From: Sedimentisphaera cyanobacteriorum
Lineage (GTDB): Bacteria > Planctomycetota > Phycisphaerae > Sedimentisphaerales > Sedimentisphaeraceae
Length of the DNA stretch: 32,000 nt
Direction of reading: 5' to 3'
Assembly (NCBI RefSeq): GCF_001997385.1
Contig: NZ_CP019633.1
Location: forward strand, 2,340,001 to 2,372,000
This document shows, in pieces, positions 1,474 to 32,000 of this stretch (positions within the stretch are counted from its first letter, which is position 1; every line of letters begins with the position of its first letter). A program made the position numbers and the translations under genes. A model generated the notes under the pieces. It was not told where the DNA came from. It did not search any database and saw nothing but the letters and a program-made list of their open reading frames with translations.

Positions 1474-2667
1474 TTACATTTTTAGAAAATATTCCATCAG
1501 TTCATAGCCCCTTGCTATATGGAGGCCTGAACCGGCCGCATTCAATTCACTGAAGGCCCTGCCTTGGACATCAGGGCGTTCGATAGTTCCGCTTATCATA
1601 AACGGCACTGGCTCAGCAGTATGCCCTCTTGTGCTCACAGGCGTAGGGTGGTCCGGCATTACGAGAATCTTCCACTCATCATAGCCTTCAAGCTTCTTTG
1701 AAAGAGGTGCGATAATCCTGCTGTCTATCCTTTCAAGGGCGGTTTTCTTGAGCTCTGCATCGCCGGAATGGCCTGCCTCATCCGGCCCCTCGAGGTGCAG
1801 GAATACAATATCATTCTCGTCGAGAGCCTCGGCTGCTGCCTCCGCCTTGCCTTCGTAATTGGTGTCTGCAAGACCGGTAGCACCTTCCACATTTATAACC
1901 TCAAAGCCGATCAGCTTCGAGAGCCCCCGAACAAGGTCAACAGCCGTGATAGAAGCCCCTTTAAGGCCGTACTTGGCCTTGAAGCTTTCCATACTCGCCC
2001 TTTTCCCTTCGCCCCAGAGCCATATCGAGCTCACAGGATTCTCCCCGAGGTCTGTACGGATTTTGTTTATCTCCATCTGGTCTATCACCAGCCTGCTTTT
2101 CTCCATCAGATCTCTCAAAAATGCGCTGTTTTTGCCCGACGGGACAATCTTTTTTACCGGCCTGCCGATATTGTCGTGGGGCGGAAGGGTTTTTACATCG
2201 AAATCCATCCCCTTTACCACGCACAGATGCCTGTAGCTCACGCCCGGATAGAAACGCACCTTATCCGAGCCGAGCTGTTTTTGAAGCTCTTCGATTATCT
2301 GCCTGCCTTCGTTGGTGGATATGTGCCCTGCGCTGTGGTCTGCCATATTCCCGTCTGAGTATGTAACCAGATTGCATCGGAATACGAAGTCTTCCTGCGT
2401 GAGCTCAATCCCCATAGCAGCGGCCTCAATAGGGGCTCTTCCGGTGTAGAATTCATACGGGTTGTACCCCAGCAGGCTCATCTGAGCAACATCACTGCCC
2501 GGAGACATACCCTCAGGGACAGTTTGAACCAGCCCCTGAATTCCCGCTTGAGAAAGCCTGTCTATATTCGGAATATCAGCGGCCTGAAGCACCGTTTTTC
2601 CGTCGAACTGGTCTATGGGAAGGTCTGCCGCTCCATCCGGAATTACTATAAGGTGTTTGCAGTTCAC
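1474..2667 (-). CDS. cofactor-independent phosphoglycerate mutase (ApgM) family protein; likely the 'proposed homoserine kinase' clade
   Basis: 397-aa ORF with a GTG start overlapping the hom stop (GTGA at 2664-2667). It has metalloenzyme-superfamily motifs (N-terminal VIPDGAAD, HLEGPDEAGH, MPDHPTP). It sits between hom and lysC, which is the genomic context used to define TIGRFAM 'proposed homoserine kinase' (recalled as TIGR02535). Confidence 0.8.
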   Translation of the reverse strand: MNCKHLIVIPDGAADLPIDQFDGKTVLQAADIPNIDRLSQAGIQGLVQTVPEGMSPGSDVAQMSLLGYNPYEFYTGRAPIEAAAMGIELTQEDFVFRCNLVTYSDGNMADHSAGHISTNEGRQIIEELQKQLGSDKVRFYPGVSYRHLCVVKGMDFDVKTLPPHDNIGRPVKKIVPSGKNSAFLRDLMEKSRLVIDQMEINKIRTDLGENPVSSIWLWGEGKRASMESFKAKYGLKGASITAVDLVRGLSKLIGFEVINVEGATGLADTNYEGKAEAAAEALDENDIVFLHLEGPDEAGHSGDAELKKTALERIDSRIIAPLSKKLEGYDEWKILVMPDHPTPVSTRGHTAEPVPFMISGTIERPDVQGRAFSELNAAGSGLHIARGYELMEYFLKM

Positions 2668-3986
2668 CCCTCATCCCCCGGGATTTCAACTATCTGTATG
2701 CAAACCGGCTCGCCGGCGATTATATTCATCTCATCAATCTTTTTAAGGGCATCATCAATCATATTGCGGGAGGTTTTGTGAGTAGTAATTACCACCGTAA
2801 CATAATTTTTCTGTGCGGGAGCCTCCTGCTGGAGGGCCCCTCTGATGCTTATCCCGTTCTCGCCCAGCGCCGAGGACATCTTCGCCAGAACGCCCGGCTC
2901 GTCTTTGGCCTGAATCCTTATATAGAAGCGTTTCTGCTGGTCTTTGATATCTGCAACCAGAGGCTTTGTTTCTTCTCTGGGCTTGAGTTTGAGGTTATCG
3001 AAGAGCTGCTTTGAATTGCCCGATACGATTTCGATAATATCAGCGGTAACTGCGCTTGCTGTGGGCATCATGCCAGCCCCGCGTCCGTAGTACATCGTAT
3101 GGCCTACGCAGTTTCCGAAAAGGCTTACCGCATTGAACGGCCCGGGAACCTGAGCTATTATCTCATCAGAAGCCACGAAAGAAGGGCTAACCTGAAGCGT
3201 GTATTCCCCGCAGGGCTGCTTCTCTGCAACGCCCAAGAGCTTGAGGCTGTATCCCATTTCTCTTCCGCATTCGATATCTGTGATGGCAATCTTCTCTATG
3301 CCTTCGTAAGTTACGTCTGCAAATTCAAACTCGCAGCCGAAACAAAGACTCGCAATGATAGCGAGTTTGTGCCCGCAGTCTCCGCCGTTTATATCCAGCG
3401 TGGGGTCTGCTTCGGCATAACCGAGCTCCTGAGCCCTTTCCAGAACGTCCGGGAAATCATCGCCGTTTTGCTCCATGCAGGTGAGAATATAATTGCTTGT
3501 GCCGTTGAGGATGCCGTAGATTCGTTCTATATCATTTGCAGCGAGGCCCGTTCTTATTGCGCTGATTATCGGGATCCCGCCTGCGCAGCTGGCCTCGAAT
3601 GCTATGCAGACGTTATTCTCACGGGCAACGCTGAAAAGCTCCGCACCATGTTTGGCAAGAAGAGCCTTATTCGCTGTAACAACGTTTTTTCCGCTTTGGA
3701 GCATCTTAATCTGGATGTCTTTGGCGGCCGTCGTACCGCCTACCAGCACAACTGCAATGTCAATGCTCTCATCGCAGGCTATATCGTCTATGTCTGTGGA
3801 CAGCAGCTCTTCAGGCACATCTACTGAGCGAGGGGTTGTGATGTCTAAATCCACAATCTTTGCAAGCTCGAGATTTGCTCCGGTTTTCTGCTGGATGGTT
3901 TCTTTCTGGTCGAAGAGGATCTTTGCAACGCCGCAGCCGACCGTCCCAAAACCCGCGATTCCTATTCTGATTCTCTTTTCATTCAT
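2664..3986 (-). CDS. hom: homoserine dehydrogenase
   Basis: 440-aa ORF with an N-terminal GFGTVG Rossmann motif, a homoserine dehydrogenase catalytic core and a C-terminal ACT domain (FYIRIQAKDEPGVLAKMSSALGENGISI). Confidence 0.95.
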   Translation of the reverse strand: MNEKRIRIGIAGFGTVGCGVAKILFDQKETIQQKTGANLELAKIVDLDITTPRSVDVPEELLSTDIDDIACDESIDIAVVLVGGTTAAKDIQIKMLQSGKNVVTANKALLAKHGAELFSVARENNVCIAFEASCAGGIPIISAIRTGLAANDIERIYGILNGTSNYILTCMEQNGDDFPDVLERAQELGYAEADPTLDINGGDCGHKLAIIASLCFGCEFEFADVTYEGIEKIAITDIECGREMGYSLKLLGVAEKQPCGEYTLQVSPSFVASDEIIAQVPGPFNAVSLFGNCVGHTMYYGRGAGMMPTASAVTADIIEIVSGNSKQLFDNLKLKPREETKPLVADIKDQQKRFYIRIQAKDEPGVLAKMSSALGENGISIRGALQQEAPAQKNYVTVVITTHKTSRNMIDDALKKIDEMNIIAGEPVCIQIVEIPGDEG

Positions 3987-4036
3987 CAGAAGATTCCTGT
4001 TCTAACTTATAGTTTACAAAAAAAGTACAGCACCAC

Positions 4037-4064
4037 ATCTTAGCTGAAAAAGGCTATTTTTCAA
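4037..4064 (-). promoter_or_regulatory. candidate sigma70-like promoter for the hom operon
   Basis: On the minus strand, TTGAAA (4064-4059), a 16-nt spacer, then TAAGAT (4042-4037), about 50 nt upstream of the hom ATG. This is a pattern match only. Confidence 0.25.
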
Positions 4065-4158
4065 GCGCAAACAAATCTTTAACTTCTTTTTGTGCGACAA
4101 TATTTTCCGGCAGGGCTTTTTCCTTAGCTTTGCTGATATTCCCCGCCGGCTATTAAAT

Positions 4159-4271
4159 CGCTAAGGATTTTGTGTTTTCATTTTACCGCGAAGCCCTCGA
4201 AACACACGAAGGGGATATTTAATTTATTTTCCACAGATGGCACAGATTATATGAATGTAAGCGATTGCGAT
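4159..4271 (-). repeat. mosaic repeat module T1 (truncated copy)
   Basis: Contains CGAAACACACGAAGGGGAT and CCACAGATGGCACAGAT, which are the reverse complements of ATCCCCTTCGTGTGTTTCG and ATCTGTGCCATCTGTGG. It aligns with 30545-30672 (same strand) and with 11530-11629 and 23540-23640 (opposite strand). Confidence 0.85.
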
Positions 4272-4542
4272 AAAAATAGGGGACAGTTACCTATTTTTAA
4301 TAGTAAAAAGCTTTATAAAATAATGAGATAGGGAATTGGCCGGCATAAGAATTTGGTTGAGATGAGACGGCAAGTGGTTCGTCAAGAGCAGCTGCCGCCC
4401 AACAAGCATATTTGCTCGGTTTAAAGCCTTGGTGAAGCAATTACACAGAAAAAAAACTGTCGAGTAAAAGCCTGTGAATAATCAAAGAAGCTGCAAACTC
4501 ACATCAGTTGAAAACAATTATTAGGTAACTGTCCCCTATTTT
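4272..4542 (+). mobile_element. MITE-like non-autonomous element, copy 1 (271 bp)
   Basis: Terminal inverted repeats AAAATAGGGGACAGTTACCT (4273-4292) and AGGTAACTGTCCCCTATTTT (4523-4542). There is no ORF inside. The whole element recurs inverted at 31661-31956. Confidence 0.8.
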
Positions 4543-5010
4543 AAGCGGTTCGCTGCTTAATAATGCAGCGTCGTATAGCGGAGGAGCGCAAGCTCCCCGC
4601 TAGGATAGCGAAACGTGAAGAGCCGGCGGTAAGCGAAAAATCTTTTCTAAAAGAATCCCTATCGGGTCCGCCACGGCGAACTCCGCTGTAGTACGGGGGA
4701 TGTTAAACATTGAGCCTGTCCGCCGCAGGCGGAGAGTTAGCGGCAGCTGAAGGAGAAAAACTTTCCCCTTATCATTGCCTTGAACTTTAAAAATCCTGTC
4801 TAAAAATATCCCCTTAGTGCTTCTTAGCGCCGCTCAGTGGCTGGAATATCTCAGTGCTGCTCGTGGTTTAAACCAATTAAAAAATCTTCGTGTTCCTCCG
4901 AGCACTTCGCGGTTTAAACCAATCCCACGTGGTTCAAACAAATTACCCGCTGAAAAATTTCTCTCCGCCTTTTCCTTATTTAATATTTATCCTGTTAATC
5001 CTGTCTAAAA
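4543..5010 (-). repeat. mosaic repeat H-T2 (long repeat), copy A
   Basis: Reverse complement of 22676-23116. By eye there are about 19 differences over ~420 aligned nt, including 113 consecutive identical nt (4845-4957 vs 22704-22816). It also matches 11853-12203. Confidence 0.9.
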
Positions 5011-5068
5011 ATTATCACCTTAGCGTATCTTAGCGCTGCTCAGTGGCTGGAATATCTCAGCTCTGCTC
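4999..5068 (+). repeat. local ~70-bp direct re-duplication of 4795-4862
   Basis: CCTGTCTAAAAAT..CCTTAGCG.ATCTTAGCGCTGCTCAGTGGCTGGAATATCTCAGC.CTGCTC repeats the 4795-4862 segment with a handful of mismatches. Confidence 0.8.
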
Positions 5069-5175
5069 AGCGGCAGTAAATCACGGCAAAGTGATTATTG
5101 AAATGCACTGCGAAGCTGAGGTCTTTGGCTTGCCAGATCAGCAGAAATTCGTTATCATTGACATCCTGTGAAAGC

Positions 5176-6150
5176 ATGGGAAAGAAAATGGAAAAAGTTT
5201 TAATCATAAGCGACGGCAAACCCGGCCACGTCAATCAGGCCAGAGCATTATGCAGCATTATGGGCTGGGAATGCATTGAGGCAGTTGCCGAATACAGGCT
5301 CAAGGCATTCAAGGCAGCGGGCTATCTGCTCGATTCGGTCAGGCTGCATTCGAGCCTTCCGTTCACACTCACCTTCAGCAGCTCAGGCGAGCGGGCAGAA
5401 GCAGAGAATATGCCTGCTGGGATCACCAGAATCGCAGCGGTGAGCTCGGGTGCATACTATCCGGCCAAGGTGCTCGCAAATCGCCTCGGGGTTGAGGTGA
5501 TTGCTTTGATGCTCCCTCGGGGCATACGCAAATCAGACTTCTCGCATATCTTCTGCCCATCCTACGACAATCCCCCTCGTGCGGAGAACATAACACCTGT
5601 GCCAATCACGCTCTGCAGCAGGGGCGAAAGCTTTTACGCCCAGAAAGCTGGCGAATTCACAGAGAAAACCGGCATGAAAGGCCCCTCTGCAAGCGTTATA
5701 ATCGGGGGGGAAAATGCGTACGGAAGAATCGAGCCGGAGAAGATTCGAGGTCAGCTCGAGAAAATCTTCGAGAAAACCCCCAATCTCGAGCACTGGCTCA
5801 CAACATCCCGCCGCACAAGCAGAAAGGTAGAAAAGACAGCCGCTTCTTTCCCGTTCGATTATAAGCTGATCTTCTCTGAAAGCCGGTACAACCCCATCCC
5901 AGCGTTTATAGGAATGAGCGAATACATCTTCGTTACCAGCGATTCATCTTCTATGATCAGCGAATGCGTCAGTACGGGCAGTGCGAAGGTGGAGGTGCTC
6001 AAAAACGAGCCGAAAAGAAAGAGCAAATTCGACAGATTCCTCGCAGAGCTTCAAGCAGAAGGCTGCGTACACATATTCGACGGCACATTAGGCGATGCAG
6101 ACAGGAAGATAAATCTGGAGGAGAAAATCCGGTCGGTTTTGGAAGACTGA
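5176..6150 (+). CDS. ELM1/GtrOC1-family putative glycosyltransferase (mitochondrial fission ELM1-like family)
   Basis: The ORF has VLIISDGKPGHVNQARAL near its N-terminus, matching the DGK.GH.NQ signature I recall for bacterial ELM1-family proteins. I place the start at ATG 5176 because the track's TTG 5098 extension lies inside repeat DNA. ATG 5188 is also possible. Confidence 0.6.
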   Translation: MGKKMEKVLIISDGKPGHVNQARALCSIMGWECIEAVAEYRLKAFKAAGYLLDSVRLHSSLPFTLTFSSSGERAEAENMPAGITRIAAVSSGAYYPAKVLANRLGVEVIALMLPRGIRKSDFSHIFCPSYDNPPRAENITPVPITLCSRGESFYAQKAGEFTEKTGMKGPSASVIIGGENAYGRIEPEKIRGQLEKIFEKTPNLEHWLTTSRRTSRKVEKTAASFPFDYKLIFSESRYNPIPAFIGMSEYIFVTSDSSSMISECVSTGSAKVEVLKNEPKRKSKFDRFLAELQAEGCVHIFDGTLGDADRKINLEEKIRSVLED

Positions 6151-11378: not shown

Positions 11379-11629
11379 TTTTACACAGAGCCTGCGGCGG
11401 ACAGGCGGGAAGTAAAAAGATGGTATTTTTAAACAGGATTGACAGGATTATTGGGCGGGTGATTGGTTTAAACCGAGAAGGACTCGGAGGAACACGAAGG
11501 GTTTTTATTGTAAATTGTTTTACAGCAATGCTTTACCTTTGTAAATTATCTGTGTTATCTGTGGATAATAAATAAATCAAAAAATTATCCCCTTCGTGTG
11601 TTTCGTGGTAAAACAAAACATAAAATTTT
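11379..11629 (+). repeat. mosaic repeat H-T1, copy B
   Basis: The order of motifs is TTTACACAGAG, a degenerate CCTGCGGCGGACAGGC hairpin, AAACAGGATTGACAGGAT, GGGCGGGTGATTGGTTTAAACC, CACGAAGGG, ATCTGTGTTATCTGTGGATAATAAA, then ATCCCCTTCGTGTGTTTCG. It is colinear with 23332-23667. Confidence 0.85.
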
Positions 11630-11683
11630 CCTATCTCTCCATCTCATCCTGTAGATCCTGTTAATCCTGTCCAATATTATATC

Positions 11684-11852
11684 TTCTCCGCTAACTCTCC
11701 GCCTGCGGCGGACAGGCTCAATGTTTAATATTCCTTTTACATCGGTGGTTAAATTATTCTTAATTGAGGCTGTTTTTCTCATCACCGGCCAGAGAGCTGC
11801 CCCGCAATTTGATATTCTGCACCAATGCGGGGGCTGAAGTTTTTACACAGAG
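11684..11852 (+). repeat. mosaic repeat module P, copy B
   Basis: 169 nt differing from 23174-23342 at 6 positions by eye. It contains the CCGCC-TGC-GGCGG hairpin and the CCCCGCA..19 nt..TGCGGGG hairpin, and ends in TTTACACAGAG. Confidence 0.9.
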
Positions 11853-12203
11853 ATATCGGAGGAAGCGGAGGGGATTTTTTGGGTGGGTATTTTTTTTTAT
11901 CCTCGTGGGATTGGTTTAAACCGCGAAGGGCGCGAAGAATTTTTGTAATTGCTTTAAACCACGAGCAGCGCTGAGATATTTCAGCCGCTGAGAAACGCTA
12001 AGAAGCACTAAGGGAATATTTTTAGACAGAATTTTTAATGTTCAAGGCAATGATAAGGGGAAAGTTTTTCTCCTGCAGCTGCCGCTGACTCAGATGTTTA
12101 ACATCCCCCGTACTACAGCGGAGTTCGCCGTGGCGGACACCGCTGTGCGACGCTGCATTATTAAGCAGCGAACCGCTGGCTCAGTCAGTAAATGCGGCGG
12201 CCA
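11853..12203 (+). repeat. mosaic repeat H-T2, copy B (deletion variant)
   Basis: Colinear with 22740-23143 but lacks three blocks. These are the NACAGGAT iteron block in the head, the ~23-nt CCGCC hairpin (C coordinates ~22928-22950) and an 84-nt block between CCGCT direct repeats (C coordinates 23001-23084). Confidence 0.85.
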
Positions 12204-15185: not shown

Positions 15186-15258
15186 GGCCCCATCGTCTAG
15201 TGGACTAGGACATCAGGTTTTCATCCTGAAAACAGGAGTTCGATTCTCCTTGGGGCTA
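15186..15258 (+). tRNA. tRNA-Glu (anticodon UUC)
   Basis: I folded the cloverleaf by hand. The acceptor stem is GGCCCCA/TGGGGCT, the D stem GTCT/GGAC, the anticodon stem TCAGG/CCTGA with loop TTTTCAT (anticodon TTC), and the T arm AGGAG-TTCGATT-CTCCT, with discriminator A. It is 73 nt long and CCA is not encoded. Confidence 0.93.
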
Positions 15259-15301: not shown

Positions 15302-15563
15302 ATTGCAAACTCCTTCAATCACAAGGGTTTACATCACTTCCCCCTTCGCCTTCCTGCTCTTCCCTGCAAGGCCTTGCGGCGGATTTGTGCAGACTTTCTT
15401 CAGCTGGTCTGAACACTGCAGGAAAAGTTCACTATTGCCATCCTTTGGGATTCGCTGGATATATCGCCGATTCTGAAATTCAATGACCGGTGTATTGAGG
15501 TTTGTATTTTAGGGTAAATTTTCTTGACAAATAAACATTTTTTTTATATATTTTATAATCAAA

Positions 15564-16854
15564 ATTTTAATCTGAAGCGCAACTTTTTTCATCGCTCCAG
15601 AGCACTTCATTTGGTGTCCGATATTTTAAACATTTCCTTGGTCGATTATTGATTAAGGCGACAACTTTGTCAAGTTCCTTATCACTAACTTTCTTAAAAT
15701 CAGTTCCCTTAGGGAAGAACTGACGAAGTAGGCCGTTTGTGTTTTCATTAGTTCCACGCTGATAAGAACTGTATGGATCAGCAAAGTAGCAGCATAGGCC
15801 GACTGTTTTTTCCATCTCTTTAAACTGGGCAAACTCCTTGCCATTGTCAACTGTCATCGTTTGACGCTTGGACTTTGGTATCTTCCTGAACAACCTTCGG
15901 GTGGTTTCATTCATGCTCTGGGCACTCTTATCTTTCATCCTGCCAGAGAGCAGATAGCGGCTTGCACGCTCGACATGTGTCGCAATAAATGAACCGTGTC
16001 CTTTACCGCTGACGCTGTCACCCTCCCAATCGCCGAAGCGATTACGCTTGTCAACAACCTCCGGACGCTCACTGATCGAACGTTTGTTCGGTATCCGGCC
16101 ACGCTTGTCATTACTGCCGTGCTTCTTTCGTCGTTTGCGACGGCCTTGACGCAAAAACTTGTAAAAAACACCGCCGTCAACCTTGTCTCGTTTAACCCAA
16201 CTATATATGGTCAAAGGGCTTACACGCATTTGGGCATTATCTGGATAGTCGATTTCAAGACGGCCTGCTATCTGTTCAGGCGAGTGATATTGCTCGAGTT
16301 TACTGCATACTCGACGACGAAGACGGCCATTCTGTTCAAGCCGATATGGCTGCTTGGATGCGGCCCTGCGTTTGCTGTAATATCGCTGGGCCAGGTGGGG
16401 CTTATAATCATGGGTTGAGGACATGTTTCGATTCAACTCACGGCTGATAGTGCCCTTGCTCCTGCCGAGATATATGGCGATTTCCAGTAAATTTTTTCCT
16501 TCAGATCGCATTTTTAGAATGCTTTCTCGCTCATTAATGTTAAGATGTCTATAGCCCATTGCGGTTCCTTAAATAGAGTACTTTTTCGTCAAAAAAACAT
16601 TCTATCGAAAACAACCGTAATGGGTGCTCTTTTTTACTTTTTAAAAGCAATCGCCATCGCTATAATAGATTATCTTGTTGCAGGGGATAGGGCAATGCTG
16701 GAGAGCAACCCGAGCACCGCAACAATCTATACTGGATAGAGGCGGCTTAACCGCCGCCCTTATTCTTTATCTATTCAGGCAGCTAAAAGCGATAAACTCC
16801 AGCCCGCCACGCGGGCTGATTAAATTAGCGAAGCGTTGCGCTTCAAATTAAAAT
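15564..16854 (-). mobile_element. IS30-family insertion sequence (~1.29 kb)
   Basis: The terminal inverted repeats are ATTTTAATCTGAAGCGCAAC (15564-15583) and the reverse complement of 16835-16854 (ATTTTAATTTGAAGCGCAAC), matching at 19/20. The transposase stop codon lies inside the left IR. I see no obvious target-site duplication (flanks ..TCAAA and CTAAG..). Confidence 0.85.
15567..16559 (-). CDS. IS30 family transposase
   Basis: 330-aa ORF with an N-terminal HTH (LEIAIYLGRSKGTISRELNRN) and a DDE integrase-like catalytic core (..GDWEGDSV.., ..TVDNGKEF.., ..RGTNENTNGLLRQFFPKG..). Confidence 0.93.
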   Translation of the reverse strand: MGYRHLNINERESILKMRSEGKNLLEIAIYLGRSKGTISRELNRNMSSTHDYKPHLAQRYYSKRRAASKQPYRLEQNGRLRRRVCSKLEQYHSPEQIAGRLEIDYPDNAQMRVSPLTIYSWVKRDKVDGGVFYKFLRQGRRKRRKKHGSNDKRGRIPNKRSISERPEVVDKRNRFGDWEGDSVSGKGHGSFIATHVERASRYLLSGRMKDKSAQSMNETTRRLFRKIPKSKRQTMTVDNGKEFAQFKEMEKTVGLCCYFADPYSSYQRGTNENTNGLLRQFFPKGTDFKKVSDKELDKVVALINNRPRKCLKYRTPNEVLWSDEKSCASD

Positions 16855-17295
16855 CTAAGTAATAAACGAAATAACGGCGAAATAAGCGGCTCCTTATCCA
16901 TTGAAAACGACGGCACTGTTGAGGTAGGCTCGCATATCTACGCTCCGTACTATTCCGGCACTCTCACTGTTGAAGACGGAAGTGTTTCCAGCGATTATAT
17001 AAAGGTTGACTCTGGAGCGGATATGACAATAAATATTGGACAGGAAGGCTCTATTGAATTTAGGGATGCATCTGTCGCAAACAACATCTCAGATCTTATC
17101 AATAATGCCTTTTCCGGCGAGGGCAGCATTAATTTGAATATCTGGAATGATGGTTCGTATGTTGACTATGCCACATTAACCGACGGCAGCGATTATAAGG
17201 TAGAGAACGGAACGTTGTTTGTTCCAGAACCTGCCACGATGGCTATGCTTGGTTTAGGCGGCCTTGGGCTCTTGCGCAGCAGACGCAAATCATAA
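16855..17295 (+). pseudogene. 5'-truncated PEP-CTERM protein gene (C-terminal remnant)
   Basis: The reading frame is open from the first nucleotide after the IS30 right IR (my translation: LSNKRNNGEISGSLSIENDGTVEVGSHIYAPYYSGTLTVEDG..) through to the PEP-CTERM sorting signal VPEPATMAMLGLGGLGLLRSRRKS. There is no signal peptide, and no matching 5' part lies on the other side of the IS. The track's 17023 ATG is internal. Confidence 0.7.
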
Positions 17296-22495: not shown

Positions 22496-22675
22496 TTTGC
22501 TTTTCCTCAATAGATTCAAAATGAAAAACAATATTATAAACAAATTTCAATGCTTGCAAAACCATTCAGGGCTATCTCCGAGAGTTTGAAAAGTTTTTTG
22601 ATCCGCAGAATGAGCAGCAGCGGTTCACCCCTTAGCATTTTAATAATCCCTTCAACGGGATAGACAGGTTGTTTT

Positions 22676-23143
22676 TTAGACGGGATTAACGGGATTTACA
22701 GGATTTTTCAGCGGGTAATTTGTTTGAACCACGTGGGATTGGTTTAAACCGCGAAGTGCTCGGAGGAACACGAAGATTTTTTAATTGGTTTAAACCACGA
22801 GCAGCACTGAGATATTTCAGCCACTGAGAAACGCTAAGAAGCACTAAGGGGATATTTCTAGACAGAATTTTTAAAGTTCAAGGCAATGATAAGGGGAAAG
22901 TTTTTCTTCTGTAGCTGCCGCTGACTCTCCGCCTGCGACCGACAGGCTCAATGTTTAACATCTCCCGTACTACAGCGGAGTCCGCCGTGGCGGACCCGCT
23001 AGGCATTCTTTTAGAAAAGATTTTTCGCTTACCGCCGGCTCTTCACGTTTCGCTATCCTAGCGGGGAGCTTGCGCTCCTCCGCTGTATGACGCTGCATTA
23101 TTAAGCAGCGAACCGCAGGCTCAGTCCGTAAATGCTGCGGCCA
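22676..23143 (+). repeat. mosaic repeat H-T2 (long repeat), copy C, the most complete copy
   Basis: The order of motifs is TAGACGGGATTAACGGGATTTACAGGAT, CAGCGGGTAATTTG, two GGTTTAAACC palindromes, CTGAGATATTTCAGCCACTGAG, CAAGGCAATGATAAGGGGAAAG, then the hairpins at 22974-23000, 23060-23084 and 23091-23110. It matches 4543-5010 (inverted) and 11853-12203. Confidence 0.9.
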
Positions 23144-23173
23144 GTCTATAGTAGATACTGGCTGTCCGCTTAT

Positions 23174-23342
23174 TTCTCCGATACCTCTCCGCCTGCGGCG
23201 GACAGGCTCAATGTTTAATATTCCTTTTACATCGGTGGTTAAATTATTCTTAATTGAGGCTGTTTTGCTCATCAACGGCCAGAGAGCTGCCCCGCAATTT
23301 GATATTCTGCACTAATGCGGGAGCTGAAGTTTTTACACAGAG
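23174..23342 (+). repeat. mosaic repeat module P, copy C
   Basis: Differs from 11684-11852 at 6 of 169 positions by eye. A partial third copy lies at 31957-32000. Confidence 0.9.
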
Positions 23343-23667
23343 GTATCGAAGGAAACGGAGAGGATATTTTTTAGACAGGATTAACAGGATTGACAGGATA
23401 GATATTTGATAAGGGAAAGGCGGAGAAAGATTTTTGGGCGGGTAATTTTTTTAATCCTCGTGGGATTGGTTTAAACCGCGAAGGGCTCGAAGGGCACGAA
23501 GATTTCTGTTAGTTATTTAATAGAAGGGCTTTACATTCATAAAATTATCTGTGTCATCTGTGTCATCTGTGGATTAAAAAATTAATTCAGACCATATCCC
23601 CTTCGTGTGTTTCGCGGGCCTCGTGGTAAAAAAACATAATATCTGTGGATAATAAATTTCGCTGCGG
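23332..23667 (+). repeat. mosaic repeat H-T1, copy C, the most complete copy
   Basis: The order of motifs is TTTACACAGAG, CGAAGGAAACGGAGAGG, three NACAGGAT units (23371-23399), GGGCGGGTAATTT, GGGATTGGTTTAAACCGCGAAGGGCTCGAAGGGCACGAAG, three ATCTGTG units (23547-23574), ATCCCCTTCGTGTGTTTCG, then ATCTGTGGATAATAAATTTCGCTGCGG. It ends 130 nt before the valS ATG. Confidence 0.88.
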
Positions 23668-23797
23668 ATTAAATATTTTTAATCGGTTTATTCGAGCCAT
23701 ACATGGAGGACGCAGCAGTCGGTTATTGCTTTACACAAACGGGTAATTTGATACCATTACGCTTAAAATTATCAGCTTGAATTGGTACAGGTTAATT

Positions 23798-26668
23798 ATG
23801 GCAAAAGAACTATCGAAAGTTTATAACCCCCGAGAAGTAGAGCAGCTTGCAGAAAAGCTTTGGCTTGATGCCGGCAGCTACCATACAGAACCGCCTTCAA
23901 AGGGCGGAAAAGACAGCAAACCATACACAATCGTAATCCCGCCGCCTAACGTAACGGGAATGCTGCACATGGGGCATGCCCTTAACAACACGCTGCAGGA
24001 TGTGATTATCCGATTCAAACGTATGCAGGGCTTCAACACCCTCTGGATGCCCGGTACAGACCATGCCGGCATCGCCACGCAGAGCGTAGTAGAGAAAAAG
24101 CTGCACTCTGAGCATGGCAAAACCCGCCACGATGTGGGGCGTGAAGGCCTTGTGGAGATGATATGGGAGTGGAAACAGCAGTATGGCGACAGAATCCTCG
24201 AGCAGCTCAAGGGCATCGGGGCCAGCTGCGACTGGCAGAGAACACGCTTCACCCTCGATGATATGTGCGCAAGGGCAGTTCGCAGAACATTCTACAAGCT
24301 CTTCAGCGACAAGCTTATTTACAAAGGCAAGCGTCTTGTAAACTGGGACCCGCACCTTCAAACAGCAGTGGCTGATGATGAGGTTGTGCATAAAACAGTG
24401 CAGGGAAATTTCTACTATATGAAATATCCGCTCTCGGACGGCAGCCGAGAAGTAATGATCGCTACTACTCGTCCTGAAACAATGCTAGGCGATACGGCTG
24501 TTGCTGTAAACCCCAAGGATGAACGCGCCGAGGAGCTGATTGGGAAGATGATAGACCTCCCGCTCACAGGGAGAAAAATCCCGATAATAGCAGATGATTA
24601 CGTAAAGCGCGGCGAGGGAACCGGCTTTCTGAAGGTTACCCCTGCCCACGACCCGAACGATTATGAAATCGGCCTGCGCCACGATCTCGAGAGAATCAAC
24701 ATCCTCACACCCGAGGGATACATCAACGAAAACGGAGGCGACTTCGAAGGGCTCGATAGATTCGAGGCACGAAAAAGGATAGTTGAAAGGCTTCAGGACG
24801 AGGGATTATTAGAGAAAATTGAGCCGAGGGAGCAGGAAGTTGGCCACAGCGACCGCAGCGGCGTTATAATAGAGCCGTATCTCTCCGATCAGTGGTTCGT
24901 AAGCGTTGCCCCGCTTGCAGCCCCTGCGATTGAAGTACTCAGAGAAAGGCGTTTGAAGTTCCATCCGAAGCGCTATGAAAGCGCATACGCCGACTGGCTT
25001 GAGGGCATTAGAGACTGGTGCATTAGCAGGCAGCTTTGGTGGGGGCACAGAATCCCGATTTGGAGCGTGGAGCTGGAGGTTGAAAACCCGATTGAGAACC
25101 CGGATGCAGACCCGATATCCGATGAAATCAAATCTGCCCTGAGCAGCAAAACCGGTGTAAGCTGGCTGGAATTCACAGAAGACCTCGGCGAGTTTGCCGT
25201 GCAGATATTCCCCGATGAAGAAGACCCTGCAAAGGTGCGCATTGATATATGCATAGCAGAGAAAGACCGCACAGCAGAAGACCTGCTCGAGAAGCACGGT
25301 TTCCGGAGAGACCCGGACGTATTGGATACGTGGTTCAGCTCTGCGCTTTGGCCTTTCAGCACTCTCGGCTGGCCTGAACAGACCGAAGAGCTCAAATTCT
25401 ACTACCCCACTGATCTTCTGATTACCTCACGCGATATCATTACGCTCTGGGTTTCGAGAATGGTAATGATGGGGCTCTACAATATGGGCGAGGTTCCGTT
25501 CAGCGATGTTTTCATACACGGGAAAATCCTCGACGGCAACGGCGAAACGATGAGCAAAAGCAAGGGCAACGGCATAGACCCGCTTGCAATTATAGAGCAT
25601 TACGGCGCAGATGCGATGCGTTTCAGCCTCGCTAATATGACCACAGAGAATCAGGATATGCGTATGCCCGTCAAGCAGGACGAGCAGGGCAGGAATATCA
25701 GCAGCAAGTTTGATATAGGCAGGAATTTCTGCAACAAGCTCTGGAATGCCTCCCGTTTTGCAATGATGAACCTCGAGAATATCAGCGCAGATGAGTTTGA
25801 TGCCGATAAGATGGATATGACAGACCGCTGGATACTCTCCCGCCTTGAAGATACAGTTTGCTATGTAACCGATATGCTGGGTGAGTATAAGTTCAGCGAG
25901 CCGGCAGGCGCGATTTATCGCTTCTTCTGGAACGACCTCTGCGACTGGTATCTGGAATGGGGCAAGCCGCGGATGAAGGATGACAGCGAAAGGCCGATAT
26001 TCCAGAACGTGCTTGCGTTTTTACTCGATAATACGCTCCGCCTTATGCACCCGTTTATGCCTTTCATAACCGAGGGCATATTCCAGACCCTCGCTGAATA
26101 CGCCCCTTCAAGGCCGCTGAAAGGGCTCGTGAAAAGGAGCGGGGAAGAGCTGCTTATAGAAGCCGCTTGGCCGGGCAGCGAGCTGGAGCAGTTCCGCAAT
26201 CCCGATATAGAGCAGCAGATAAATGAAGTGCAAACGATTGTTAAGAGCATTCGTGAGGTGAGAAGCCAGTACAATATCGCCCCGAAGCAGAAAATCAAGG
26301 CAGGCATCTCCGCACCCGAGAGCTATCAGCCGCTATACGAAAAATGCAAAGAGCTTATCGTAAATCTCGCAGGGCTCGAGAGCCTTGAGATAGCCGAAAA
26401 CATAGAGCGGCAGGGAACTACCGCCACAAACGTTATCGGCGAGATTGAAGTTTTCGTGCACGGCGTGATAGACCCTGATGCTGAGAAAAAACGCCTTGAA
26501 AAGCAGAAGCAGGATCTTGTTAAAGCTGCAAAGGGCGTGGAAGGAAGGCTTTCAAACGAGAGCTACGTTAAGAATGCCCCGCCTGCAATCGTTCAGGACT
26601 CCAGAAATAAGCTCGCAGAGCTGAAAGAACAGATTGAGGCTGTTGATAAGCTTCTCGAAGAGCTCTGA
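23798..26668 (+). CDS. valS: valine--tRNA ligase
   Basis: Class I aaRS motifs are present: PPNVTGMLHMGHALN (HIGH) and TMSKSKGN (KMSKS). It also has an editing domain and a C-terminal coiled coil. I place the start at ATG 23798 (MAKELSKVYNP), because the track's 23777 start is a TTG. Confidence 0.95.
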   Translation: MAKELSKVYNPREVEQLAEKLWLDAGSYHTEPPSKGGKDSKPYTIVIPPPNVTGMLHMGHALNNTLQDVIIRFKRMQGFNTLWMPGTDHAGIATQSVVEKKLHSEHGKTRHDVGREGLVEMIWEWKQQYGDRILEQLKGIGASCDWQRTRFTLDDMCARAVRRTFYKLFSDKLIYKGKRLVNWDPHLQTAVADDEVVHKTVQGNFYYMKYPLSDGSREVMIATTRPETMLGDTAVAVNPKDERAEELIGKMIDLPLTGRKIPIIADDYVKRGEGTGFLKVTPAHDPNDYEIGLRHDLERINILTPEGYINENGGDFEGLDRFEARKRIVERLQDEGLLEKIEPREQEVGHSDRSGVIIEPYLSDQWFVSVAPLAAPAIEVLRERRLKFHPKRYESAYADWLEGIRDWCISRQLWWGHRIPIWSVELEVENPIENPDADPISDEIKSALSSKTGVSWLEFTEDLGEFAVQIFPDEEDPAKVRIDICIAEKDRTAEDLLEKHGFRRDPDVLDTWFSSALWPFSTLGWPEQTEELKFYYPTDLLITSRDIITLWVSRMVMMGLYNMGEVPFSDVFIHGKILDGNGETMSKSKGNGIDPLAIIEHYGADAMRFSLANMTTENQDMRMPVKQDEQGRNISSKFDIGRNFCNKLWNASRFAMMNLENISADEFDADKMDMTDRWILSRLEDTVCYVTDMLGEYKFSEPAGAIYRFFWNDLCDWYLEWGKPRMKDDSERPIFQNVLAFLLDNTLRLMHPFMPFITEGIFQTLAEYAPSRPLKGLVKRSGEELLIEAAWPGSELEQFRNPDIEQQINEVQTIVKSIREVRSQYNIAPKQKIKAGISAPESYQPLYEKCKELIVNLAGLESLEIAENIERQGTTATNVIGEIEVFVHGVIDPDAEKKRLEKQKQDLVKAAKGVEGRLSNESYVKNAPPAIVQDSRNKLAELKEQIEAVDKLLEEL

Positions 26669-26721: not shown

Positions 26722-26808
26722 CGGATTTGCAAAACGCTTAAATCTCACCTCGAACTCATTTTATGCAGCAGCTCAGAGCAGAAATCGAAGGTATCTCGAC
26801 TAATTAAC

Positions 26809-28344
26809 TAGTCGCCCCTGAAAAAGTTTAAAATTTTCCTTAAATTCTTTCCTGATAATGGTTTATATGATTGAAAAGCTTTCGAGATATGGTATAATAT
26901 TGCAAGTGTTTATCTTACATCTATCAAAACATTGCAATATTGGGACAAAATAATGAAGGCAAAAAACAATAAAGCAGGCTTACTCTTTCAGCAGCCATTA
27001 AAACCTCTTGTAAATCCTGATCACTCTTTAGTCCAACTCTCAGAGGTTGTCAACTGGTCTCGCTTTGAAGAGAAGTTTGGCAGTTTATACAGTCCTGATT
27101 CAGGCAGGCCGGCCAAGCCGATTCGCCTGATGGTCGGCCTTCAGTATCTCAAGTACACTTTCAATCTCAGCGATGAAGCAATCGTTGCCGGCTGGGTTGA
27201 GAATCCTTACTGGCAGTATTTCTGCGGCGAAAGATACTTCCAGCACGAGCCTCCTATTGATCCAACCAGTATGACTAAGTGGCGTAATAAGGTAAAATCT
27301 GATGGTCTTGAAGAGCTGCTCGAAGAAACTATCAAAGCCGGCTTGAAGCTTAAGGTTATCAAAAAGAACGATTTCAACAAGCTCGTTGCAGATACAACCG
27401 TTCAGCAGAAGAACATCACTTATCCGACCGACGCAAAACTCTGCCACAAACTGCGCATTAAGCTTGTAGATCTTGCAAAAGCATCAAAACTCCAACTTCG
27501 CCAAAGCTACGAAAGGGTTGGAAAAAGGGCGTATGTAATGCAGGGCAGGTATCGACGTGCAAGACAGTTCAAAAGAGCTAAAAAAGAAGTGAAGAAATTA
27601 AGGAACTACCTGCGGCGAATTACGAAAGAGGTCGAGCGGAATATAGCAGGCAATGAGCAGTTAAGAATAATTTTTGATACATTGCTTCAAGCCGCTAAGA
27701 AGCTTTTAGCCCAGACAAAGAAAAGCAAAAATAAGCTCTACAGTATTCACGAACCTCACGTCTGCTGCATTGGGAAAGGCAAAAGCCACAAGAAATATGA
27801 GTTTGGAAATAAGGTTGGAATTGTAACTACTGCCAAGAATAATTTTATCGTAGGAGCGTTGGGCTTTGAAGGAAACCCTTATGATGGCCATACTCTTCGG
27901 GCTAATCTGAAGCAGACAATGAATTTAATCGGGAGAGAAAAGCTTGGAGATGTTTATGTTGATGGAGGATACAAGAAACATGGCTGCGAAGATATTGGAA
28001 ATGTTGAAATTGTAGAAAAGGGCTGGCGAAAAAAGAAACGAAGTATCAAGAGGTGGATTAAGAGAAGATCGAGCATAGAACCAACGATAGGCCACCTCAA
28101 AGAAGACAACAGGTTGGGAAGAAACTTCTTGAAAGGTGTAGAAGGGGACAAAATGAACGCCCTCGGCAGCGCTTTTGGGTACAATATGCGTAAACTTCTA
28201 GAGAAGTTTACTTTTGCCTATATTTTTATGCTTAAAATTATTGAATTTTACAGAAATTTGGCAATGAAAAGCAAATTAAAGACTCGATTAGCCTGATATA
28301 TTTTTTTAGTTTCCCCAAAATCATTGATTTTTCAGGAACGACTA
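26809..28344 (+). mobile_element. IS5-family insertion sequence (~1.54 kb)
   Basis: The terminal inverted repeats are TAGTCGCCCCTGAAAAA (26809-26825) and the reverse complement of 28328-28344 (TAGTCGTTCCTGAAAAA), matching at 15/17. It has a single transposase ORF and is more AT-rich than the surroundings. Confidence 0.8.
26953..28296 (+). CDS. IS5 family transposase
   Basis: The N-terminal DUF772-type region (LVNPDHSLVQLSEVVNWSRFEEKFGSLY..GRPAKPIRLMVGLQYLKYTFNLSDEAIVAGWVENPYWQYFCG) and the DDE domain are typical of long IS5-family transposases. I place the start at ATG 26953, because the track's 26932 start is a TTG. Confidence 0.9.
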   Translation: MKAKNNKAGLLFQQPLKPLVNPDHSLVQLSEVVNWSRFEEKFGSLYSPDSGRPAKPIRLMVGLQYLKYTFNLSDEAIVAGWVENPYWQYFCGERYFQHEPPIDPTSMTKWRNKVKSDGLEELLEETIKAGLKLKVIKKNDFNKLVADTTVQQKNITYPTDAKLCHKLRIKLVDLAKASKLQLRQSYERVGKRAYVMQGRYRRARQFKRAKKEVKKLRNYLRRITKEVERNIAGNEQLRIIFDTLLQAAKKLLAQTKKSKNKLYSIHEPHVCCIGKGKSHKKYEFGNKVGIVTTAKNNFIVGALGFEGNPYDGHTLRANLKQTMNLIGREKLGDVYVDGGYKKHGCEDIGNVEIVEKGWRKKKRSIKRWIKRRSSIEPTIGHLKEDNRLGRNFLKGVEGDKMNALGSAFGYNMRKLLEKFTFAYIFMLKIIEFYRNLAMKSKLKTRLA

Positions 28345-28600
28345 TTTATTAACCGCTAATTTTAACTAATTTCCGCTAAGATGGTTTCTTCGTGGTGAAT
28401 AATTCATTTTAAAACCCCGGAGGGCGCTAAGGGCACGAAGGGTTTTTGTAAATTATTTTATAACAAGGGCTTAGATTTTTAAAAATCTGCGTCATCCGTG
28501 CCATCTGTGGATAATAAATTTCGCTGCGGGCTCGAAAGATCAACTATCCGCTTGTTGTCCGCCTTCGGCGGACTGGCTCAGTTGATAGATAATAAATTCA
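28345..28600 (+). repeat. mosaic repeat region D (degenerate H words, partial T1, REP-like nested hairpin)
   Basis: The order of motifs is CCGCTAAG, CGGAGGGCGCTAAGGGCACGAAGGG, ATCTGCGTCATCCGTGCCATCTGTGGATAATAAATTTCGCTGCGGG (cf. 23641-23667), then the GTCCGCC-TTC-GGCGGAC hairpin (28557-28573) nested inside ATCAACT/AGTTGAT (28539-28545 / 28580-28586). Confidence 0.75.
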
Positions 28601-30510: not shown

Positions 30511-30780
30511 TTTAGAACCACGAAATTTAAACCAATCCCCCCAACCAAAAAATTGTGTTTTGTTTTATCACTAAGGGGCCGAAACACACGAAGGGGATAT
30601 GGTTTTGATTGTTTTTTTATCCACAGATGACACAGATGGCACAGATTTTATTTGAATGTAAGCGATTGATGTAAAACAATTTATAACATAAATTTTCGAG
30701 CCCTTTGAGCACTTCGTGATTTTAACAAATTACCCGCCCAAAAAATCCTGCCAATCCTATCGAAGGTATTATTGAAATGC
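30511..30780 (-). repeat. mosaic repeat H-T1, copy E (inverted, degenerate head)
   Basis: The reverse complement reads ATAGGATTGGCAGGAT, TTTTGGGCGGGTAATTTG, CACGAAGTGCTC.., AATCTGTGCCATCTGTGTCATCTGTGGAT, ATCCCCTTCGTGTGTTTCGG, GGGGATTGGTTTAAATTTCGTGG. Its gene-proximal end lies ~160 nt upstream of the sulfatase ATG. Confidence 0.8.
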
Positions 30781-31493: not shown

Positions 31494-31660
31494 GATAAAC
31501 ACCTTTCACAATTCTCTAAAAAAACAATTAAACATACTTCTTTTGAGTTAACAAAACTGAATTGAAAAATCAAATTAATTTTAAGTATTTTTCCTGATTT
31601 TCTAAATTTTTCATGCGGCTTAAAGTGATTGGAGGTAAATCTTTGCCGCACTTTTTACCT

Positions 31661-31956
31661 AAAATAGGGGACAGTTACCTAATAATTGTTTTCAACTGAT
31701 GTGAGTTTGCAGCTTCTTTGATTATTTTTTAGAAAACCAATTTCTGATTGTTCACAGGCTTTTAATCGGCATTTTTTTCTGTTTAATTGCTTCATCAAGG
31801 CTTTAAACCGAGCAAATATGCTTGTTGAGCGGCAGCTGCTCTTGACGAACCGCTTGCCGCCTCATCTGAGCCAAATTCTTATCCCGGCCAATTCCCTATC
31901 TCATTATTTTATAAAGCTTTTTACTATTAAAAATAGGTAACTGTTCCCCTATTTTT
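31661..31956 (-). mobile_element. MITE-like non-autonomous element, copy 2 (296 bp, inverted relative to copy 1)
   Basis: It has the same TIRs (AAAATAGGGGACAGTTACCT at 31661-31680 and AGGTAACTGTTCCCCTATTTTT at 31935-31956). By eye it shows about 14 substitutions plus a ~25-nt indel relative to 4272-4542. Confidence 0.8.
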
Positions 31957-32000
31957 CACCGCAATTTGATATTCTGCACCAATACGGGGGCTCAATGTTT
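31957..32000 (+). repeat. partial P module at the window edge
   Basis: CACCGCAATTTGATATTCTGCACCAATACGGGGGCTCAATGTTT matches 11808-11845 and 23298-23335 and then runs into the GGCTCAATGTTT motif. It is cut by the window end. Confidence 0.7.

Follow-up and report, generated by a model that had tools for sequence, protein, structure and literature searches.

Composite interspersed repeats and a nested miniature inverted-repeat element in the hom/ELM1-like spacer of Sedimentisphaera cyanobacteriorum

The sequence studied here is a 32-kb stretch of Sedimentisphaera cyanobacteriorum (Phycisphaerae) DNA, hereafter the window, and the locus of interest within it is the spacer between hom (2664-3986, minus strand) and a divergently transcribed ELM1-family gene (hereafter ELM1-like; plus strand, ATG at 5176 or 5188), which carries an array of repeat modules interrupted by an element resembling a miniature inverted-repeat transposable element (MITE). 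The repeat families were examined inside the window and against relatives, including the sister species S. salicampi, whose Hom protein is 96% identical to the one encoded here. The amino-acid permease and ValS encoded in the window are 100% identical to proteins of S. cyanobacteriorum. Based on self-comparison, repeat-covered DNA amounts to 3.2 kb (10%) of the window and is wholly intergenic, that is, all of it falls between open reading frames (ORFs) with Pfam support, and six spacers carry modules. The big arrays are three, each between divergently transcribed genes: array A in the hom/ELM1-like spacer, array B in the rnr/comF spacer (11380-12203), and array C in the gpsA/valS spacer (22655-23667). 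The parts of the hom/ELM1-like spacer, starting from the hom side, are the following:

3987-4087, minus strand: native hom leader/promoter region, outside the repeats (91% identity over 101 nt to S. salicampi)
4088-4158, no strand assigned: lineage-specific spacer, with no self-match in the window and weak similarity to S. salicampi
about 4159-4270, minus strand: T1 remnant, a module of ~190-250 nt when complete, of which the 3' half is kept and the 5' half is missing (alignment to four other T1 copies)
4271-4544, minus strand: MITE-like element with its flanks, the body being 4274-4541 (268 bp), recognized by its terminal inverted repeats (TIRs), flanks and second copy
4545-4958, minus strand: T2 module body without its last 26 nt, the head (about 4880-4958) being common to T1 (copies at 96% and 83%)
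4577-4693 (equivalent to 22968-23093), minus strand: T2 core, a GC-rich three-way-junction palindrome cluster with a relative in S. salicampi
4792-4862, minus strand: M segment of T2 and source copy of a local duplication, consisting of a 9-10-mer run (CTGAG/CTAAG) that ends in GGGGATATTTTTAGACAGGATT (self-comparison)
4959-5016, minus strand: H motif TTTTTAGACAGGATTAACAGGAT (about 4989-5016) and the 30-nt K segment AAATATTAAATAAGGAAAAGGCGGAGAGAA, leading to the T1/T2 head (alignments)
4997-5068, minus strand: M', a duplicate of the M segment (89% to 4792-4862), joined to H via the shared TTTTTAGACAGGATT
5069-5175, plus strand: unique ELM1-like upstream region, with a predicted promoter-like TTGCCA-17-TATCAT at 5130-5158

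The anatomy of array A follows from its relationships to the other copies in the window. The T2 body (4545-4958) is the reverse complement of 22703-23116 in array C, with 96% identity over 414 nt (E=1e-172), while 4734-4975 is the reverse complement of 11858-12091 in array B (83%) and 4882-5004 that of 23384-23505 (86%); that is, array A is inverted relative to arrays B and C. The H/K stretch has a part in this 86% match and, over 28 nt, shows 96% identity to 23363-23390. Beyond the MITE, 4170-4275 matches T1-type copies at 30553-30676, 23594-23631 and 11518-11608, and the four T1 copies that align to the remnant span 11425-11630, 23360-23670, 28370-28535 and 30545-30775. The remnant contains an ATCTGTG 9-mer run, the DnaA-box-like TTTTCCACA (4227-4235, plus strand) and ATATCCCCTTCGTGTGTTTCG. 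Read on the minus strand from the ELM1-like side, the order is thus unique DNA (5175-5069), M' (5068-4997), H, K, the common T1/T2 head, the body of T2 as far as 4545, the MITE, the 3' half of T1, 70 nt of unique DNA and the hom leader (4087-3987).

The modules themselves are built from a limited set of parts. T1 (~190-250 nt) and T2 (~440 nt) have a ~120-nt head in common, with tails that differ. D1 (197 nt; copies at 11684-11880 and 23174-23370), the third module, has in common with T2 a hairpin followed by GCTCAATGTTTAA. The building blocks include 9-10-nt periodic CGAAG/CTAAG/CTGAG runs ending in GGGGATAT, 9-mer runs of GACAGGATT and of ATCTGTGTC, the palindrome GGTTTAAACC, and GC-rich hairpins followed by GCTCAATGTTTAA. 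These modules are arranged as T1-D1-T2 in array B, T2-D1-T1 in array C and T2-MITE-half T1 in array A, and an additional T1 copy (28380-28530) is oriented toward the 3' end of a gene. In the T2 copy of array B (12094-12203 compared to 22951-23143), two pieces are missing, namely 85 nt with a CCGCT direct repeat at the bounds and a 21-nt hairpin. The alternatives here are a microhomology deletion in array B and an additional nested mini-insertion in the remaining copies; the relative in S. salicampi supports the long form as ancestral. Such an organization is that of composite, or mosaic, interspersed repeats.

Several other identities were considered for the arrays and rejected. CRISPR arrays do not fit since spacer/repeat periodicity is absent, integron attC sites since an integrase is absent, and intrinsic terminators since T-runs are absent. 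A coding origin was likewise rejected, based on the lack of Pfam matches for the small ORFs of the arrays and on frame-breaking indels in the alignment of the T2 core between S. cyanobacteriorum and S. salicampi. With respect to known structured RNAs, tRNA-Glu is the sole Rfam match in the whole window, and arrays A and C give nothing better than E=2 even at a permissive threshold.

The element that interrupts array A has features of a MITE. Its 268-bp body is bounded by a perfect 20-nt TIR, AAATAGGGGACAGTTACCTA (4274-4293 and 4522-4541), it folds as a single long hairpin (z=-4.8), and its largest ORFs, of 40-53 aa, have no Pfam match at E<=0.1. A second copy is present at an unrelated locus (31662-31954), with identity beginning and ending at the same terminal bases; the flank-inclusive alignment (4264-4543 against the reverse complement of 31660-31965) shows 89% mean column identity, including a 26-nt indel. 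These two are the copies visible within the 32-kb window. Copy 1 is flanked by a candidate 3-bp target duplication, TAA, at 4271-4273 and 4542-4544. A 3-bp TAA duplication would suggest IS5/PIF-Harbinger-like ('Tourist'-type) chemistry, not the TA of IS630. The TIR had no matches in an exact scan of viral contigs, and the whole element had none among plasmids (blastn).

Both modules that flank the MITE in array A are truncated at its borders. The T2 module stops at ...GCAGCGAACCGC(T), where arrays B and C continue with GGCTCAGTC.GTAAATGC.GCGGCC, so that the last 26 nt of T2, present in B and C, are missing in A exactly at the MITE edge. On the opposite edge, the T1 remnant begins at TTTTATCGCAATCGCTTACATTCA (also given as TTTTATCGCAAT). 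The corresponding sequence of full T1 copies is ...AAATTGTTTTACATCAATCGCTTACATTCA and, therefore, the TTA adjacent to the MITE falls on the TTTTA of T1. This arrangement is compatible with two histories: the MITE may have been inserted into T1 at TTA, with a later deletion taking the T1 5' half and the end of T2, or T2 and T1 may have been already fused, with the MITE landing on their junction. The intact TAA/TAA flanks favor the second history; the tiny chance of hitting such a junction, and the fact that the second MITE copy also abuts a truncated module, favor an element-linked rearrangement. Specifically, the right flank of copy 2 is a D1 piece (31957-32000) that is cut exactly at the MITE edge and lacks the first ~120 nt of D1. 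Two copies are too few to decide between these histories. It was also observed that the right flanks of both copies have xCGCAAT a few nt from the end, and this sharing, together with the edge-truncated modules, may reflect target preference or element-linked rearrangements.

A further rearrangement is local to array A. The M segment at 4792-4862 is directly repeated as M' at 4997-5068, with 89% identity over 72 nt (E=3e-18), and weak similarity may extend M' to about 5083. M and M' have in common states that are found in array A only and not in arrays B and C (ATTCCAG not ATTTCAG, GAGCRGCGC not GAGAAACGC, and GACAGGATT not GACAGAATT) and, therefore, M' is a local paralogue or a conversion product. 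In addition, TTTTTAGACAGGATT, with which the H motif starts, is the end of both M and M', so unequal recombination or slippage between H-like motifs would be the simplest origin. A simple tandem duplication of a 206-nt unit was rejected since the first 71 nt alone match between the two periods. The preliminary description of this DNA had reported the inverted orientation of array A, its interruption by a MITE, the T1 remnant, the truncation of both flanking modules at the MITE borders and a local re-duplication of about 70 nt. All of these were borne out, with boundaries right to within a few nucleotides and matches far beyond chance, local duplication or gene conversion being the better reading of the last.

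Comparison with relatives shows where the repeat DNA begins. The hom operon is conserved in S. salicampi (89% identity over 3.2 kb), and this similarity ends 101 nt upstream of the hom ATG, at position 4087 of the window. The array and the ELM1-like gene that follow in the window are replaced in S. salicampi by a PhoD-family gene and unrelated DNA. Similarly, upstream of valS the similarity to S. salicampi is limited to the DNA from 23719 on, that is, 58 nt before the annotated start (23719-23776), and upstream of this conserved leader S. salicampi has a tRNA-like stretch and unrelated genes (AAA_21/RloB vs. gpsA). Given that similarity ends at their inner edges, arrays A and C begin just beyond conserved leaders, at places where gene order differs between the two species. 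The comparison of orthologous hom upstream regions had been proposed in the preliminary description as a check, and its outcome is that both the array and the MITE are absent from S. salicampi, where the upstream neighbor also differs; hence, they are lineage-specific insertions and not a conserved leader. Concerning the annotated start of valS, we noted that the mechanically assigned TTG (23777) lies 7 codons upstream of the start of the public protein (956 aa vs. 963 aa) and that S. salicampi valS aligns from the ATG at 23798.

The repeat families also appear to be narrowly distributed and to have spread recently. Across 108 kb of DNA from relatives, of which 36 kb are from S. salicampi, profiles (nhmmer) of T1, D1 and the MITE had no matches, and this 36-kb sample contains almost no interspersed repeats of its own. 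The T2 copies of arrays A and C differ by 4%, as opposed to 11-13% for orthologous coding DNA between S. cyanobacteriorum and S. salicampi; divergence between the copies below that between the species indicates that the spread was recent. An exact scan with an 18-mer of T2 against 185k species genomes gave 6 matches in unrelated taxa vs. ~17 estimated by chance, and one with a 20-mer of T1 against Joint Genome Institute (JGI) metagenomes gave 2 matches, in coding-like DNA and with no flanking similarity. The T1 core had no exact matches among viral contigs, and blastn against plasmids gave none. Our literature search on repeats in the genus Sedimentisphaera found no paper.

The starts and predicted promoters of the two genes lie outside the repeats. 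The hom leader contains a predicted sigma-70-like site (TTGAAA at 4064-4059, a 16-nt spacer and TAAGAT at 4042-4037), as well as the motif AAGATTTGTTTGCGCTTGAAAAA, located about 75-95 nt upstream of the hom ATG (in the stretch 4037-4080) and conserved in four Sedimentisphaerales hom loci, which is probably the promoter of the hom operon or an operator. On the opposite side, the preliminary description had taken a TTG-initiated 5' extension of the ELM1-like ORF (5098-5175) to run into repeat-derived DNA. This view does not hold: the repeat ends at 5068 (at most ~5083), 5084-5175 is unique, having no other copy in the window, and an in-frame TGA is found at 5092-5094. The TTG at 5098 is itself probably spurious, with the gene likely starting at ATG 5176 or 5188. 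The extension overlaps the promoter-like site at 5130-5158. In the protein translated from ATG 5176 the ELM1 Pfam domain begins at residue 16, so that the TTG extension is not needed. The location of the promoter-like sites of both hom and the ELM1-like gene outside the repeats suggests that the array is probably tolerated cargo.

These observations bear directly on the possibility, implied in the preliminary description, that the arrays are cis-regulatory devices (i.e., a long leader, a promoter carrier or a protein-binding platform) oriented on hom, comF and valS. Consistent with this possibility, each of the three big arrays occupies a 5' divergent spacer of housekeeping genes, and their modules have hairpins and periodic 9-mers that could bind proteins. 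The preliminary description had further remarked that in all three arrays the modules point toward a flanking gene, which is literally true; however, all three arrays are located between divergent genes and, therefore, any orientation points at one gene, making the observation uninformative. No regulatory meaning can be attached to such geometry, and the T2 strand that folds better is in fact the opposite one. In addition, module order differs among the arrays, and S. salicampi has hom and valS without any array, while conserved promoter-like leaders stand between array and gene in S. cyanobacteriorum. For hom, this leader with its predicted promoter is downstream of all modules, the outcome that the preliminary description had itself named as counting against the modules being transcribed together with hom. 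Finally, promoter-like matches in the array region are no more frequent than in shuffled sequences (4 vs. 2.1 +/- 1.4), and no terminator-like site was found in this region. For these reasons we regard a cis-regulatory role as decidedly improbable; the array shows no sign of being a regulatory device and looks instead like ordinary mobile-DNA clutter.

The T2 core raises the possibility of a function of a different kind. It is the sole repeat piece with a relative in S. salicampi, where a sequence 72-73% identical over ~120 nt (L013, 12932-13059) is found 60 nt downstream of valS, on the other strand; in both species the core is located close to valS, on different sides. The central 35 nt, GCTTACCGCCGGCTCTTCACGTTTCGCTAT, are almost invariant. 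The predicted fold is more stable than those of shuffled sequences, more so on the reverse strand (-98.4 kcal/mol, z=-3.8), which is the strand that would lie in the valS 3' untranslated region (UTR) of S. salicampi, than on the forward one (-83.9, z=-2.2). The closing stem and one internal stem of the three-way junction each show a double pair-preserving change (G-C to U-A and G-C to A-U), for 2-3 compensatory pairs overall, and in two hairpins the loops differ but the stems are retained. Accordingly, the core could be a functional structured element (a small RNA, or a UTR stabilizer or attenuator acting in the manner of repetitive extragenic palindromes, REPs) that predates the species split and was copied afterwards together with T1-type sequence, the rest of the array being hitch-hiking DNA. 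However, covariation has little power with two effectively independent sequences, palindromic DNA looks alike on both strands, and one stem is poorly kept in S. salicampi. The core copy of array B also lacks 85 nt and that of array A the distal hairpin, the core has no Rfam match and no promoter or terminator signals, and in distant relatives the search near valS returned a marginal 41-nt match upstream of valS in one metagenome-assembled genome (E=0.016). Taken together, we consider a functional T2 core unlikely, although it is the one lead among these results that holds some promise.

A third possibility concerns the T1 modules. The perfect DnaA-box 9-mer TTATCCACA occurs 4 times in 32 kb vs. 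0.17 expected, and all copies are inside T1-type modules (11560-11568, 23644-23652 and 28506-28514 on the minus strand, and 30617-30625 on the plus strand), with the degenerate TTTTCCACA at 4227-4235 in array A. The box ends a head-to-tail 9-mer run, TTATCCACA GATGACACA GATGGCACA, and the relaxed pattern TTWTNCACA gives 12 sites vs. 2.3 expected, 9 of the 12 in repeats. T1 modules could thus be DnaA-box carriers, serving as DnaA-titrating or DnaA-reactivating sites or conferring DnaA-dependent regulation on neighboring genes. However, the T1 copies are paralogous, so that the count reflects one event that was copied, as opposed to four independent ones. Further, the box is conserved no better than the neighboring T1 sequence, the array A copy is degenerate, S. 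salicampi does without T1 modules in the 36 kb examined, and, to our knowledge, directly adjacent 9-mers do not resemble known DnaA-box arrays. Hence, we find a DnaA-related role extremely improbable. As for the chromosomal context, the GC-skew profile of the window was uninformative for placement relative to ori or ter. Combining both ideas, the T2 core might be an undescribed structured RNA or DNA element of Sedimentisphaera that in S. cyanobacteriorum was taken up and multiplied by a T1-type mobile module, spreading structure and DnaA-box motifs into housekeeping control regions; this scenario also seems improbable to us.

We favor, and consider likely, the hypothesis that selfish composite repeats form the array, a recent and lineage-specific mosaic that holds a nested MITE, was reshaped by deletion and unequal recombination and is tolerated outside the native promoters of both genes. 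According to this hypothesis, motif blocks would have been shuffled into the part-sharing modules T1, T2 and D1, which accumulated in permissive spacers. At the locus studied here, (i) following the divergence from S. salicampi, copies of T2 (~4% different from the one upstream of valS) and of T1 would have arrived upstream of the native promoter of hom; (ii) the 268-bp TIR element would have inserted at a TAA/TTA that fits T1's TTTTA; (iii) the T1 5' half and ~26 nt of T2 would have been lost at the other edge of the MITE, by adjacent deletion or by prior T2/T1 fusion; and (iv) unequal recombination or slippage between two TTTTTAGACAGGATT motifs would have placed a copy of the 71-nt M segment before H.

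Four points weigh against this hypothesis. First, the target duplication is found at one of the two MITE copies only, with copy 2 being flanked by CTA/TTC. Second, no autonomous partner was found for the MITE, the two insertion sequences (ISs) of the window having TIRs unrelated to it, and we only infer its mobility. Third, the T1 copies keep a perfect DnaA-box 9-mer. Fourth, and judged from alignment and folding, the conservation of the T2 core across species with compensatory changes is suggestive, and is more in keeping with a functional RNA or DNA structure than with pure junk.

The two ISs of the window are:

26805-28348: IS5/IS1182-like element with DUF772 and DDE_Tnp_1 domains and 21-nt imperfect TIRs, TAACTAGTCGCCCCTGAAAAA
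15544-16874: IS30-family element with an HTH_38 and rve transposase (15567-16559) and inverted repeats at 15544-15583 and 16835-16874

The IS5/IS1182-like element sits about 135 nt downstream of valS, with a partial T1 (28380-28530) and then a GC hairpin (28548-28591) beyond it, and the IS30-family element lies about 290 nt downstream of tRNA-Glu (15186-15258). A derivation of the MITE from an IS of the window was rejected based on the unrelated TIRs. In S. salicampi, we also observed two 97-nt direct repeats (L013, 496-592 and 2467-2563) that are 100% identical and flank a 540-aa DDE_Tnp_1 transposase gene; this length would be unusual for a target duplication.

The value of these results lies primarily in annotation: about 10% of the window is lineage-specific repeat DNA, the TTG extension annotated for the ELM1-like gene is probably not real, and the likely promoters of hom and valS can be placed in short conserved leaders. 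The results also document a MITE, as well as repeat families not described so far, for a cultured species of Phycisphaerae. The location of the repeats at gene-order breaks relative to the sister species makes them candidate substrates or markers of rearrangement. Current understanding of how such elements work is left unchanged by these results.

Among known systems, REPs mobilized by REP-associated tyrosine transposases (RAYTs) are tagged with GTAG or CGTC and have been reported in Planctomycetes (PMC3733652). The T2 and D1 hairpins resemble these in having GC-rich stems of 5-7 bp that are clustered in intergenic DNA. However, upon inspection against the published description (PMC3733652), they lack an unpaired GTAG or CGTC tag at one end (the nearest CTAC is 8 nt from a stem, and a CGTC overlaps a stem), for which reason membership in the REP/RAYT group was rejected. 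The hairpins also differ in size, with, for instance, a 6-bp stem and an 8-nt loop here as opposed to the 8-9-bp stems and 4-5-nt loops of the CGTC families (PMC3733652), and no IS200/RAYT gene is present in the window. Further, most REPs lie downstream of coding regions (PMC3733652), unlike the big arrays described here, which occupy 5' divergent spacers.

Like the bacterial MITEs RUP (with IS630-Spn1-like TIRs), Nezha and Correia, the MITE-like element is short (268 bp, the size limit for MITEs being about 500 bp) and non-coding, has TIRs, folds into a hairpin and is present in at least two dispersed copies, and it is nested in other repeats, as RUP is. In contrast to these MITEs, no partner IS with matching TIRs was found for it within the window.

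The closest parallels for the arrays as a whole are the bacterial interspersed mosaic elements (BIMEs) of enterobacteria, the Neisseria intergenic mosaic elements (NIMEs) and the BOX elements of Streptococcus pneumoniae, which also consist of short non-coding sub-modules in variable order and number, and are intergenic, hairpin-rich, species-restricted and clustered, with other repeat families inserted in them. The array modules have no sequence similarity to any of these, and are longer (190-440 nt) and built on 9-10-nt periodic runs (of the CGAAG type, GACAGGATT and ATCTGTGTC), as opposed to one palindromic unit. In pneumococcus, composite repeats cluster together and insert into one another (PMC3049150). 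What we observed in S. cyanobacteriorum has the organization of mosaic repeats, with T1, T2, D1, H, K and M found in different orders in arrays A, B and C.

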